Origin: Escherichia coli O157:H7
GTDB lineage: Bacteria; Pseudomonadota; Gammaproteobacteria; Enterobacterales; Enterobacteriaceae
Direction: 5' to 3' (one strand)
NCBI RefSeq assembly: GCF_013167455.1
Contig: NZ_CP038328.1
Length of the DNA: 64,000 nt
Positions 26,651 to 30,488 of this stretch are shown one piece after another. The position numbers were made by a program, and so were the translations under genes. Numbering within the stretch: position 1 is the stretch's first letter; the number at the start of each line of letters is the position of its first letter. The notes beneath the pieces were generated by a model that was not told the DNA's origin, did not search any database, and saw nothing but the letters and a program-made list of their open reading frames with translations.

Positions 26651-27205
26651 ATGAATAAAAAATTAATGTATATATTCACAATTTTTATAGTTGCAGCAAT
26701 TACCTGTATTAGCCAACCCAAGAAAACGACGTTGCGTGATAAAGCCATGGTGAATTATGCCTTTGATTATTTAAGCTCACCGGGCAGTCTTCCATTCACC
26801 ACGGCAGCCACGGAGCTTTCCGCGATTCATGGTCACTCAACGTCGCAATATCGCCTTGGAGAATTTTATCTTCATGGTAGCGACGGTAAACCACTGGATT
26901 ATACACAGGCGAGATACTGGTATGAGCAATCAGCGGAACAGGAAAATCCACGCGCGCAAAGTAAACTGGGGTGGATCTACCTCAAAGGTCTGGGGGTCAA
27001 ACCCGACACCCGTAAAGCAATTCTCTGGTATAAGGAAGCAGCTGAACAAGGGTATGCTCATGCTCAATATACTTTAGGTTTGATCTACAGAAATGGCTCA
27101 GGTATTAATGTTAACCATTATGAATCTCAAAAATGGTTAAAACTGGCCGCCAAACAACATTACAAAAATGCGGAAAGATTACTTGCCGGGCTTCCCGCAC
27201 ATTAA
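26651..27205 (+). CDS. ybeT: Sel1-repeat protein with N-terminal signal/anchor sequence
   Basis: 184-aa ORF with hydrophobic N-terminus [19 protein letters not shown] and Sel1-type repeats (WY..AA.QG). Confidence 0.9.
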
Positions 27206-27214
27206 CGTCGACTG

Positions 27215-28642
27215 TCACCCGAACAGATGGAGTATTTTCCCTATCAAACCAGCAAAGATAAAAATATAGAAAATAATTTTAATGATGCCCAGACAGCCTG
27301 GCCCACCATCGTCAACGGGCATTGGCTGCGGTTGCGGCTCCGGTTCAACAGTTTGCTTCTCGGTAAAATTCGCCGCCTGAATTAATAATCGACGAATAAT
27401 TAATGCTTCCAGTGGACAACGATTTTCTGCATCAAGACGGCTTACGATCGGCATTAATGATTCTTCTGTAGGTTGGCTGGCCTGCACTAATTGTTTGGCA
27501 ACTAGATATAATGGCCATAAGGTATGTTCTGTATCACGCGTGAGTGAGATCCGCGGCTTACATCCTTTGTGCAAAACCATCTCGACCAGTGAACGCCCCA
27601 GAGCAGAGAGTTTTTCATCGCTGAGTATTTCGTATAAATGAAAACGCGTACGGGCGCTGTCGCCGGGGACATAAAGTAGCGGTTTTCCCTGGTCGTTAAC
27701 CAGTTCACGAGCTTCAATCATCATCACCACTAATGGGTAATAATCGACTCGATGCTGACGGCACCATTGCAACATTAAAGCATCCGCCTGAGTGGAGGGA
27801 TACTCGTGCCAGTAGTCACAAAGTTCTGCCAGCAGGCTTTCGCCTTCTCCACAATAGACGCGTTGCGCGTATTCATAATAACGCGCATCTTCATTATCAG
27901 GTTCAGCTTCCCGCCACGACCGGGCGTAATCCAGGAGTTCGGGGATTCCCAGGCGACCTGCACTATACCAGCGGAGTAAATTTCTGTGCAGTTTTGCATC
28001 ATCGGGGATAATCACTGCGCGATGTTGCGCTAAATACAATGTCAGCCATTCTGGATGCGATGACCAAATCCGGGCGAACATTTGGTAAAAATCGATGGTG
28101 TCATTTTGCACGGCAACGGGCAGATGCAGAATGATCTGGAAGTTAAAAACATTTCCCTTCGCAATGGCATATAAAAAGGATTCCAGTTCTTCTTCGTCTA
28201 TTTCCCCGACGTTTTCCTCCTGCAACCACCGCAATCTTTCTGCTAATAACACCACGCACTCGAAGGATAAATGGGCAGTGTTCATGGCTATTGTGCACAG
28301 CGACCAGCGTAATTCATCAATCTCATTCATCGAGCAATAATTTAATTGCTGAATGAATCGCTGCCAGGCGGAGGGCAGAAAACGTTCACTATCAGAGGCA
28401 AGTAACGCACGAAAGGCGAGCAGAATTTCATGTTCTGCTACCTCATATTCTTCTGGTTGCCAAACAGATTTAGCAGGCGACTGCGCAATCCGGAGCGCTT
28501 CCTCATACGCCTGACGAAGTTGTTTAAAACCCTGCGGATCGGTTTCTGGATGAAAGGACGGTAACAGCGCCAGATAAGCGCGGCGGATAATATCGACATC
28601 AGTCGTTTCCTCTATGTTGAGGATCTTCCAGCAATTTTTCAT
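27215..28642 (-). CDS. djlB: J-domain co-chaperone DjlB (YbeS), tail-anchored
   Basis: 475-aa ORF with N-terminal J-like domain, highly similar to djlC, and a C-terminal hydrophobic helix. Confidence 0.9.
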
Positions 28643-29346
28643 AGGTCGCTCATATCCTTAAGCGTTTCCGGGCATGTGGGGTAGTCAGCCAGTGGTTGCC
28701 AGGGTAAGGTCGCGTAATATGCATCGTCACTGGCAAATAATTGATAAAACATATCATTGCCGGAATCGTCGTATTCTTTACGCGCTAAGAATTCACGTAA
28801 TAAAGGCAGATTATCATCTTCGGGAGACTGCCAATATTGCCGACCAAAGGTATAACCGGCAAAGTATTGCCGCCAGTTACTATAATAACGTAGAGCCCGT
28901 AGATGAATACGCGACTGGATCCATAGACTTTCTTCTTCACTCAACCAGTTATTAAGTACGCCCATTCGACTTAAAAAACCCATCCGGACATAATCCCATG
29001 CTTTAATTCCTCCCTCACCACAGCATTCGGCTGTGCTGGCGACAAATTGCGCATAAGCCTGACCTTGCTCATTTAATTCAGCAAGATAGTCACGCCATTC
29101 ACATGGAGAATAACGAAACCAGCGGTGATAAAACCCTGCCAACCGCGCGGCATGACCGTTATCGATCATTCGGTGAATTGTGCGCAGCAGGTCATCACGG
29201 TCATCAATTCCCCAGGAGGAAGAAAGGTCAAAAAAGCGTGTACCTAAATACATTTTGGGTGATGAATGCGAAGGTAAACAGCATTCATTGCGTATTTCCA
29301 TCGGAGTGGAAAGTGCAAACAATATTTTTTGCGACTCCATGTCCAT
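28639..29346 (-). CDS. ybeR: DUF1266-like protein
   Basis: 235-aa ORF; its stop overlaps the djlB start (ATGA); paralog of ybeU. Confidence 0.9.
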
Positions 29347-29510
29347 ATGATTTATCCTTAAATATTCATTGAATGAATATTAGCCGCATTGCGACGCTCG
29401 TTTATTTATACTTTTCTGACGCGACATAATACGCATAAAATAAGGCTTGCGCAAAAAATGAAACACATAAAAATTCAATATATTTTATCTACAATCATAA
29501 GGAAATGATA

Positions 29511-30488
29511 ATGATTTTCACGTCAAGTTGCTGCGATAATTTATCAATAGATGAGATTATCGAACGTGCTGAAAAAGGCGATTGCGAGGCTCAATATATT
29601 GTTGGGTTTTATTATAATCGCGATAGCGCAATTGACTCTCCGGACGACGAAAAGGCCTTTTACTAGCTGAAGCTGGCCGCTGAGCAAGGTCATTGTGAAG
29701 CACAGTATTCCTTAGGGCAAAAGTATACCGAGGATAAAAGCCGTCATAAAGATAATGAGCAAGCCATCTTCTGGCTGAAAAAAGCTGCCCTACAAGGCCA
29801 TACTTTCGCTTCCAACGCCCTTGGCTGGATACTGGATCGTGGAGAAGACCCCAACTATAAAGAAGCGGTTGCCTGGTATCAGATAGCCGCGGAGAGCGGA
29901 ATGTCTTATGCGCAAAATAATCTTGGGTGGATGTACAGAAATGGCAACGGAGCCGCACAAGACTATACGCTGGCATTTTTCTGGTACAAACAAGCTGCAT
30001 TACAAGGCCATAGTGACGCGCAAAACAATCTGGCCGATCTTTATGAAGACGGAAAAGGCGTTGCTCAAAACGAGACACTCGCCGCATTCTGGTATTTGAA
30101 AAGCGCACAGCAGGGTAATCGGCATGCTCAGTTTCAAATTGCATGGGATTATAACGCTGGCGAAGGGGTGGACCAGGACTATAAGCAAGCGATGTACTGG
30201 TATCTGAAGGCTGCCGCTCAGGGGAGCGTCGGCGCTTACGTCAACATCGGTTATATGTATAAACACGGACAAGGCGTTGAGAAAGATTATCAGGCTGCCT
30301 TTGAATGGTTTACGAAAGCCGCTGAATGCAATGACGCCACTGCCTGGTATAACCTGGCCATTATGTATCACTACGGAGAAGGAAGACCTGTCGATCTCCG
30401 ACAGGCTCTCGACCTGTATCGTAAAGTTCAGTCATCCGGAACCAGAGATGTCAGTCAGGAAATTCGTGAGACTGAAGATTTACTGTAG
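29511..30488 (+). pseudogene. ybeQ: Sel1-repeat protein YbeQ interrupted by an in-frame TAG at codon 52
   Basis: ATG at 29511 opens a frame reading ...DDEKAFY*LKLAAEQG...; TAG at 29664-29666 sits where a Sel1 repeat expects Trp (TGG). The frame then runs 274 codons to the TAG stop at 30486-30488 (track ORF 29901..30488 is its 3' part). Confidence 0.7.

Follow-up and report, generated by a model that had tools for sequence, protein, structure and literature searches.

The region analysed here is a known E. coli accessory locus for HscC, a specialised Hsp70, and its pair of paralogous J-proteins of class C. We hold the explanation developed below to be quite likely as a whole; in it, the chaperone machinery of both putative units works at the inner membrane from the cytoplasmic side, and the Sel1 accessory protein alone differs in compartment. 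The window, i.e., the whole 64,000-nucleotide stretch of E. coli O157:H7 DNA under study, matched O157-type E. coli chromosomes at 100%, and gene names are those given by PGAP. Both the locus and the tail anchors of its J-proteins have been described previously, and this reading is mostly known and ordinary.

The genes are arranged in the order hscC–djlC–ybeU–ybeT–djlB–ybeR–ybeQ. HscC is an intact, cytoplasmic protein of 556 aa (22664..24334, + strand), which PGAP annotates as 'molecular chaperone HscC'; in a profile search, its DnaK/HscA-family matches scored under the equivalog cut-offs. The djlC pseudogene (24394..25845, − strand; PGAP 'internal stop') holds a J-protein frame broken after codon 150 by an in-frame stop, and ybeU (25842..26549, − strand) encodes a DUF1266 protein of 235 aa (Pfam PF06889, 154.9 bits). 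On the opposite strand, the 184-aa YbeT (26651..27205, + strand) combines an N-terminal anchor- or signal-like segment and a linker of about 40 aa with three Sel1 repeats. The intact djlB gene (27215..28642, − strand) encodes a 475-aa class C J-protein with an HPE motif, a PF27158 middle domain and a C-terminal helix, and ybeR (28639..29346, − strand) a second DUF1266 protein of 235 aa (PF06889, 162.4 bits). The ybeQ pseudogene (29511..30488, + strand; PGAP 'internal stop') features a seven-repeat Sel1 frame with a polar N-terminus and no signal. Both DUF1266 domains are full-length and exceed the gathering cut-off of 27 bits; for the Sel1 repeats (PF08238, Pfam gathering score 30.7 bits), YbeT reached 105.5 bits with three repeats and YbeQ, in its K-12 frame, 212 bits with seven. 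ybeU overlaps the start of djlC by 4 nt, as does ybeR the start of djlB. The GC content of the locus is low, with 39-50% compared with about 52% in the flanks, and a scan for consensus promoters and terminators between 26400 and 29600 gave counts no higher than in shuffled sequence.

We measured hydropathy as the Kyte-Doolittle 19-residue mean, with 1.6 as the threshold for a membrane segment. The sole DjlB segment above this value was a C-terminal tail-anchor helix (codons 449-475; 27218..27298, − strand; mean 2.39), formed by residues 449-471 and followed by 4 residues to the C-terminus. The djlC frame likewise ends in a helix (458-482; coding region 24397..24474, − strand; mean 1.85-1.99), encoded 3' of the premature stop. 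Next-best windows in the two frames reached 1.53 and 1.36, and both N-termini are J domains. These J domains matched Pfam DnaJ over residues 4-47 with 22.3 and 19.3 bits against a gathering score of 27.8, and their loop motif is HPE, not HPD. HPE is accepted as the J-domain motif in this system, and DjlC stimulates the HscC ATPase (PMC8215388). A C-terminal hydrophobic helix was found in all 20 enterobacterial J-proteins compared. Previous work showed that DjlC requires its C-terminal helix to insert into the inner membrane and that the helix by itself suffices for this (Peschke 2018, cited in PMC6794478); in the literature, insertion is described as post-translational, via SRP/FtsY/YidC and aided by DnaK, with the J domain staying in the cytoplasm. 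DjlB and DjlC have both been described as tail-anchored, DjlB by homology (PMC8215388), and by sequence criteria DjlB would be a tail-anchored inner-membrane protein like DjlC. The original prediction that both J-proteins are tail-anchored thus holds for the two frames and their homologues, although the djlC frame is stopped upstream of its helix in this strain. It had also counted DjlC within positions 26651-30488, where DjlB does lie but djlC (24394-25845) does not. A placement of the units at the inner membrane is supported for the J-proteins and already published, experimentally so for DjlC insertion (PMC6794478).

YbeQ contained no hydrophobic segment (best 19-residue mean 0.47). Its polar N-terminus, MIFTSSCCDNLSIDE, is kept in seven orthologues, including those of Salmonella and Citrobacter, and a hydrophobic start was never seen. 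The hydrophilic N-terminus once noted for YbeQ is borne out by the frame, although ybeQ is a pseudogene in the window; as a statement at sequence level, a cytoplasmic YbeQ next to a membrane-anchored or exported YbeT is a sound and conserved prediction. YbeU and YbeR were also free of hydrophobic segments by Kyte-Doolittle analysis. In contrast, we found no basis for two units acting on opposite sides of the membrane, as the J domains, the DUF1266 proteins and HscC lack an export signal and no more than 0-5 residues follow the tail-anchor helices on the outer side. YbeT is the only locus component that could be extracytoplasmic.

Across the genomes compared, the conserved core is HscC with an HPE J-protein (+ DUF1266). 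Proteobacteria retain the membrane anchoring, which takes the form of a tail anchor or of two to three C-terminal helices. TPR or Sel1 scaffolds occur repeatedly, either fused or encoded by a gene of their own. A Sel1 gene is paired with a DUF1266-J pair twice in Escherichia and once more in an independent locus (L007). The proposed pairing of units has to be qualified in view of Salmonella and Citrobacter, where both DUF1266-J pairs occur, ybeT is lacking and the YbeQ-type gene is the sole Sel1 member. No Sel1 neighbour was seen in Enterobacter, in Klebsiella or at about 30 Pseudomonas loci. At about 40 loci of Firmicutes, HscC-type J-protein and TPR arrays form a direct fusion that has no membrane segment, so that the repeat scaffold is cytoplasmic in these bacteria.

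In this strain, two genes of the locus are interrupted: djlC by an ochre stop at codon 151 (25393..25395, − strand; GAA->TAA, E151) and ybeQ by an amber stop at codon 52 (29664..29666, + strand; TGG->TAG, W52). The exact 61-mers with these stops are present in 308 (djlC) and 298 (ybeQ) of 5426 complete genomes, and the two nonsense alleles mark the O157:H7 lineage. In E. coli K-12, djlC and all the other locus genes are intact. From the two stops it follows that, unless read-through occurs, this strain can make neither YbeQ at full length nor a DjlC that has both its J domain and its tail anchor. Each putative unit thus has one pseudogene member in the window, and HscC, DjlB, YbeR, YbeU and YbeT remain intact. 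In practice, this O157-type strain has to be regarded as carrying a half-inactivated locus.

It is possible, but in our view rather doubtful, that decay has gone further and that the locus in this strain is a silenced remnant without current function. The hydrophobic ends would then be inherited traits of genes on their way to being lost, and the compartment question would be moot here. In line with this, the two nonsense mutations are independent and fixed in the O157:H7 lineage, and about 32% of E. coli genomes lack the locus or have lost part of it (no match in 979 of 5426, partial in 754), with an IS1-associated loss among them. Furthermore, ybeT and ybeU-djlC have been placed in the H-NS regulon, and in quantitative proteomics cited by PMC8215388 the levels of HscC, DjlB and DjlC were too low for detection. 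A ybeT TraDIS match with phage Arnold was not reproduced by the Keio ybeT knockout, which had no phenotype in the phage test. Nevertheless, five of the seven genes are intact in the lineage, among them a complete set of HscC, DjlB and YbeR, and 68% of the E. coli genomes (3693 of 5426) keep the full locus. Between Escherichia species, ybeT shows a pattern of purifying selection, and hscC and djlB djlC mutants are sensitive to Cd2+ (PMC8215388). A role as an anti-phage defence system was rejected, since seven of eight proteins had no match in PADLOC-DB 2.0 and the match of YbeQ to PtuA was weak and spurious (E = 1e-4).

In YbeT, the apolar segment (codons 5-21; 26663..26713, + strand), preceded by MNKK, stands out by hydropathy, conservation and codon-position pattern. 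L5-I20 is the sole hydrophobic segment of the protein, with a 19-residue mean of 1.87 compared with 0.62 for the next best, and lies in an uncharged stretch of 19 residues (L5-P23), 16-17 of them apolar. YbeT does start with a signal- or anchor-like N-terminus, as originally predicted, and the segment is kept in seven distinct Escherichia-group orthologues with identities down to 70%. Given their conservation, this segment, the polar N-terminus of the YbeQ type and the C-terminal helices of the J-proteins are no chance features. In the first 32 codons, differences between species fall mainly in the third position (e.g., 3/2/11 and 2/2/12 for positions 1/2/3), hence the N-terminal segment is translated. 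A shorter, anchorless YbeT starting at Met33 was rejected, as codons 1-32 evolve like coding sequence.

How this segment orients YbeT is a matter of competing signals. The n-region (KK/KRK in MNKK/MKRK) is invariant in the seven orthologues and free of acidic residues, and the KK argues for an N-in orientation. We regard an uncleaved N-in signal anchor with a periplasmic Sel1 domain as the most likely arrangement of YbeT, ahead of a cytoplasm-facing N-out protein, and hold this view with due reserve. ybeT has long been annotated as a 'conserved outer membrane protein'; in the literature, we found no localisation experiments on YbeT, YbeQ, DjlB or the DUF1266 proteins, and source names within the YbeT cluster gave no localisation information.

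The basic residues that follow the helix speak against an exported Sel1 domain. They could indicate that YbeT is instead a type III, N-out/C-in anchor resembling that of DjlA or TatE, although we think this less probable. YbeT would then hold a cytoplasmic Sel1 domain beside DjlC and take the role of YbeQ at the membrane, with everything on one side. With two K/R before the helix and four directly after it, K+R counting by the positive-inside rule puts the C-terminus inside. Over the 15-18 residues after the helix, these four K/R give a net charge of +2 to +3, compared with −2 to +1 in the same-window comparators, six Sec-exported proteins and one N-in anchor. At net +4, the C-flank of TatE, an N-out anchor also encoded in the window, comes closer to that of YbeT, and its flank has the same four K/R and one acidic residue. 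Moreover, ybeT is divergent to ybeU-djlC, which encodes cytoplasmic proteins, and co-induced with it in E. coli (by SlyA, 4.1x for ybeT and 2.8x for ybeU-djlC), and is paired with ybeU-djlC again in the independent locus L007. Firmicutes fuse TPR scaffolds in cis to their cytoplasmic HscC-type J-proteins, and a YbeT that faces the cytoplasm would, by analogy, be functionally plausible. On the other hand, the N-tail is invariant and not acidic, as in a classical n-region, the positive charge after the helix falls to about +1 net in two orthologues, and the older annotation predicted export. Nor did AlphaFold2 (alphafold2_ptm) dock YbeU and YbeT confidently: the linker-fused YbeU+YbeT(21-184) reached a pTM of 0.62, compared with 0.56 for a YbeR+YbeQ control and a self-estimated baseline of about 0.55 for two independent domains, so that these fusions allow no partner, and hence no compartment, to be inferred.

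Export of a cleaved or lipid-modified YbeT to the periplasm or outer membrane, as a Sel1 protein unrelated to the chaperone genes and inserted antisense between the DUF1266-J pairs, is unlikely. It would fit the outer-membrane annotation, the tiny family, almost confined to Escherichia, and the gap of 11 nt between djlB and the next DUF1266 gene in Salmonella and Citrobacter, where ybeT is lacking. The characterised Sel1 relatives matched (EsiB/c5321, HcpC, AlgK, MotX, ExoR, MerG) are presumably mostly exported, and Cys19 after the apolar stretch is invariant among the seven orthologues. However, a canonical lipoprotein could be excluded, since A(F)-I-T-C fails the lipobox rule [LVI][ASTVI][GAS]C at −3 and −1 in all seven. 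For Sec export with SPase I cleavage, we looked for a basic n-region, an h-region spanning about 7-15 residues, small side chains at −3/−1 and an early mature region that is neutral or acidic. MNKK provides such an n-region. With 16-17 residues, the apolar stretch is long for this, with weak cleavage sites only (V-A-A, I-T-C) and no helix breaker before them, and the basic region that follows is unlike the early mature region of the six exported comparators (net −2 to 0). In addition, ybeT again adjoins ybeU-djlC-hscC in the different neighbourhood of L007 and is co-regulated with these genes.

With YbeT most likely an uncleaved N-in anchor, we may outline how the locus would work. From conserved sequence we infer that DjlB acts as DjlC does, and translation of each J-protein would be coupled to that of a DUF1266 protein that is soluble and cytoplasmic. 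YbeQ would serve as a soluble cytoplasmic Sel1 scaffold and YbeT as a short Sel1 protein that its translated, conserved apolar helix holds at, or sends across, the inner membrane. YbeT would thus be an Escherichia-restricted add-on and not a core part. In the O157-type window, the system is half-decayed through the lineage-specific djlC and ybeQ nonsense mutations. HscC is the third Hsp70 of E. coli, for which published clues comprise sensitivity to Cd2+ and UV and a proposed connection with clients that are membrane proteins; chief among the published clues to its function is the inner-membrane location of its J-proteins, which is not new. As a very improbable extension, the uncleaved helix of a periplasmic YbeT might pair in the bilayer with the DjlC tail anchor, or with that of DjlB in this strain, and relay periplasmic events to the HscC ATPase. 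If true, this pairing would constitute a trans-membrane Hsp70 signalling module, with the soluble YbeQ/DjlB unit as its purely cytoplasmic counterpart.

Among known systems, the K-12 HscC-DjlC/DjlB system (b0644-b0650) is orthologous: its genes follow one another in the same order, its proteins are 97-99% identical, and it shares the HPE J domains, the tail anchors at the C-terminus and the DUF1266 and Sel1 neighbours. It differs from the window, where an ochre codon at E151 makes djlC a pseudogene and an amber codon at W52 does so for ybeQ. This K-12 system has been treated in Kluck 2002, Peschke 2018 and the Mayer 2021 review. With the bacterial tail-anchored proteins DjlC, Flk and SciP/TssL, DjlB shares a single C-terminal helix, the lack of an N-terminal signal and a cytoplasmic bulk, but the helices here contain conserved internal or flanking Lys/Arg/His (IIKI...GK, ...NRFFHFF). 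Like DjlB and DjlC, DjlA belongs to the class C J-proteins, is tethered to the membrane and recruits an Hsp70 to the inner membrane on its cytoplasmic side. In contrast, DjlA has an N-terminal, type III anchor, a C-terminal J domain and an HPD motif, its partner is DnaK and not HscC, and it has no DUF1266 or Sel1 neighbours. Compared with exported Sel1 proteins (EsiB/c5321, Helicobacter HcpB/C, AlgK, MotX, ExoR, LpnE), YbeT has only three repeats and lacks cysteines that form disulphides, a canonical cleavage site and a lipobox; its leader is followed by a basic stretch. YbeQ has no leader at all. Finally, in J-TPR fusions, such as eukaryotic DnaJC3/P58IPK and DnaJC7 or the HscC-linked proteins of Firmicutes, J domain and repeats share one chain, whereas the repeat protein of Escherichia is encoded by a separate and divergently transcribed Sel1 gene.

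As originally predicted, YbeT begins with a hydrophobic N-terminus, whereas that of YbeQ is hydrophilic. In YbeT, L5-I20 is the sole hydrophobic segment (19-residue Kyte-Doolittle mean 1.87) and is preceded by MNKK; in YbeQ such a segment is absent, the 19-residue maximum being 0.47. Also in agreement with the prediction, DjlB and the djlC frame each feature one hydrophobic segment at the extreme C-terminus (Kyte-Doolittle 2.39 and 1.99); on this scale YbeU and YbeR contain none. The apolar segment was kept in seven distinct YbeT orthologues down to 70% identity, with E. whittamii, two further Escherichia species and two metagenomic contigs among those compared. 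A polar N-terminus was kept in seven YbeQ-type proteins, Salmonella and Citrobacter included, and the C-terminal helix in 20 of the 20 enterobacterial J-proteins examined. Being retained in all these homologues, the hydrophobic features are not due to chance. Furthermore, differences between species in ybeT codons 1-32 lie mainly at third positions, from which it follows that the segment is translated and that the annotated ATG is the start. The contrast between YbeT and YbeQ is a correct and conserved sequence-level prediction, and it follows from existing annotation.

Between 26000 and 31000, the window is 100% identical to O157-type E. coli chromosomes; the gene layout is that which PGAP gives for an identical genome and for K-12. 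The plus strand carries hscC (22664-24334), ybeT (26651-27205) and ybeQ (29511-30488), the minus strand djlC (24394-25845), ybeU (25842-26549), djlB (27215-28642) and ybeR (28639-29346); ybeL and then leuS lie downstream of ybeQ. ybeT sits antisense between djlB and ybeU (26550-27214), its stop 9 bp from that of djlB. With 39-50% GC versus ~52% in the flanks, the locus is somewhat AT-rich. Pfam assigns three Sel1 repeats to YbeT and seven to YbeQ, classes YbeU and YbeR as DUF1266 proteins, and finds in DjlB and DjlC a weak J domain whose motif is HPE, a variant remarked on in a 2026 review, together with the PF27158 'DjlB_C_2nd' domain. Among the locus proteins, no known defence system or other unexpected identity was found.

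PGAP flags both djlC and ybeQ as pseudogenes. Codon 52 of ybeQ (29664-29666) is TAG instead of the TGG of K-12, and codon 151 of djlC (25393-25395) is TAA instead of GAA. Exact 61-mers at these stops occur in 298 (ybeQ) and 308 (djlC) of 5426 complete E. coli genomes; among the matches listed, the identical ones are O157:H7 strains. The two nonsense mutations are independent events. Each unit, a Sel1 protein with its DUF1266-J pair, here has one dead member, the J-protein DjlC in one and the Sel1 protein YbeQ in the other; HscC, DjlB, YbeR, YbeU and YbeT are intact. For all four proteins the hydrophobicity claims stand at the level of sequence, but the stops had been overlooked, and the earlier description therefore fits K-12 and not the window. 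The hydrophobic-end observation is real, but it applies in full only where the genes are intact.

Tail anchoring, as claimed, is already in the literature. According to Peschke 2018 as described in PMC6794478, DjlC was established experimentally as a tail-anchored inner-membrane protein, and its C-terminal helix is both required and sufficient for insertion, a process that uses SRP, FtsY, YidC and DnaK. [quoted passage not shown] Upon SlyA over-expression, ybeT was the most induced transcript (4.1-fold) and ybeU-djlC was induced 2.8-fold; in the H-NS regulon, ybeT was entered as a 'conserved outer membrane protein' (PMC5797941). No publication was found that localises YbeT, YbeQ or DjlB itself.

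With DjlC shown to be tail-anchored and to activate HscC, conserved sequence suggests that DjlB would behave alike. The 4-nt ATGA overlaps of DUF1266 and J genes (25842-25845 for ybeU/djlC, 28639-28642 for ybeR/djlB) may couple the DUF1266 protein and the J-protein of each pair. This would bring HscC to the inner membrane on its cytoplasmic face; the Sel1 proteins would be adaptors, with YbeQ a soluble cytoplasmic one and YbeT membrane-located. That the two units act on opposite sides of the membrane is not supported for a whole unit, as the tail anchors expose at most 5 residues beyond it and no export signal is present in the J domains, the DUF1266 proteins or HscC. At most, the idea may hold for the YbeT Sel1 domain.

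We rather think that YbeT is a periplasm-facing signal anchor with a cytoplasmic N-terminus (N-in). Its n-region (MNKK/MKRK) is invariant, basic and free of acidic residues, its soluble part has no cysteines compared with 5-7 in YbeQ, and an older ybeT annotation predicts export (PMC5797941). An anchor whose Sel1 domain faces the cytoplasm (N-out) is possible, if doubtful. E. coli YbeT has four K/R in the nine residues after the helix, which speaks against export, but this positive charge is not conserved and amounts to ~+1 net in two orthologues. Over the first 18 residues past the apolar core, net charge among proteins from the window was -2 to 0 in six Sec-exported proteins (RNase I, PagP, DacA, RlpA, LptE, GltI), +2 in YbeT, +1 in the N-in anchor PBP2 and +4 in the N-out anchor TatE. 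Given the positive-inside rule and the inhibition of export by basic early mature regions, the flank charges of YbeT disfavour translocation. The N-out comparator tatE (46911-47114) encodes a short N-tail, an apolar core and then KKLR..., a flank pattern resembling YbeT; it adjoins a 'deaminated glutathione amidase' pseudogene (approximately 47243-48030), frameshifted according to PGAP. Used to see if the cytoplasmic DUF1266 protein would dock onto the Sel1 domain, AlphaFold2 gave a pTM of 0.62 for fused YbeU+YbeT and 0.56 for the YbeR+YbeQ control, both near the ~0.55 that we estimate for a pair of unrelated domains. A cleaved or lipid-modified YbeT is improbable, as positions -3 and -1 of the invariant I-T-C depart from the lipobox consensus of a canonical lipoprotein and the long apolar stretch contains no helix breaker ahead of a plausible cleavage site, which favours an uncleaved anchor.

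Sel1 genes are optional within Enterobacterales. Salmonella and Citrobacter show the order ybeQ <-> DUF1266-J-DUF1266-J <- hscC and lack ybeT. The gap between their first J gene and second DUF1266 gene, the counterparts of djlB and ybeU, is only 11 nt (9437-9449 in the Salmonella locus L003, 9425-9437 in the Citrobacter locus L004), which points to either insertion of ybeT in Escherichia or its loss elsewhere. Their DUF1266-J-DUF1266-J genes apparently form one four-gene operon. Between hscC and rihA, Salmonella has a 412-aa gene (L003 13399-14637) with no Pfam match on record, absent in E. coli and Citrobacter. Enterobacter and Klebsiella spallanzanii hold a single DUF1266-J pair and no Sel1 gene. 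Upstream of the pair in an Enterobacter metagenome contig (L005), a called 193-aa 'gene' (6536-7117) contains an internal repeat, PLTAIFKMRARTKV twice, and has the look of repetitive DNA that encodes no protein. In a different neighbourhood, contig L007 carries a lone hscC / djlC-like / DUF1266 <-> ybeT-like unit; recurrence of the divergent Sel1 <-> DUF1266-J arrangement supports a functional link. The YbeT family gave 61 matches, nearly all E. coli, and is a narrow add-on of the Escherichia group. The locus is dispensable within E. coli: across 5426 genomes it was complete in 3693, partial in 754 and without match in 979. In four partial genomes that were sampled, the same deletion removes djlB-ybeR-5'ybeQ and spares hscC-djlC-ybeU-ybeT. 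Upstream of ybeQ, Escherichia sp. MOD1-EC7003 has an extra, apparently split J-like gene (L011 2741-4096), whose own C-terminal helix, AVFLLSLIAVIIALLTVVI, is very hydrophobic.

A DjlB/C profile scanned against a single genome from each species, together with look-ups of individual homologues, yielded three architectures of HscC-linked J-proteins. In Enterobacterales, a J-protein of ~475 aa with one C-terminal helix neighbours DUF1266 and hscC genes. In ~30 Pseudomonas species (L013-L042) it measures ~890 aa, has 2-3 helices near the C-terminus and lies beside DUF1266 and hscC without a Sel1 neighbour; these HPE J-proteins show a weak DUF805 match. In ~40 Firmicutes (L043-L086), among them Lachnospiraceae, Clostridium and Brevibacillus, hscC neighbours a soluble J-protein of 1000-1170 aa, in which the J domain is fused directly to long TPR arrays and no membrane segment was found. 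Taken together, across Proteobacteria the J-protein has kept its membrane tether, and a TPR-type scaffold is a recurrent, variably encoded companion.
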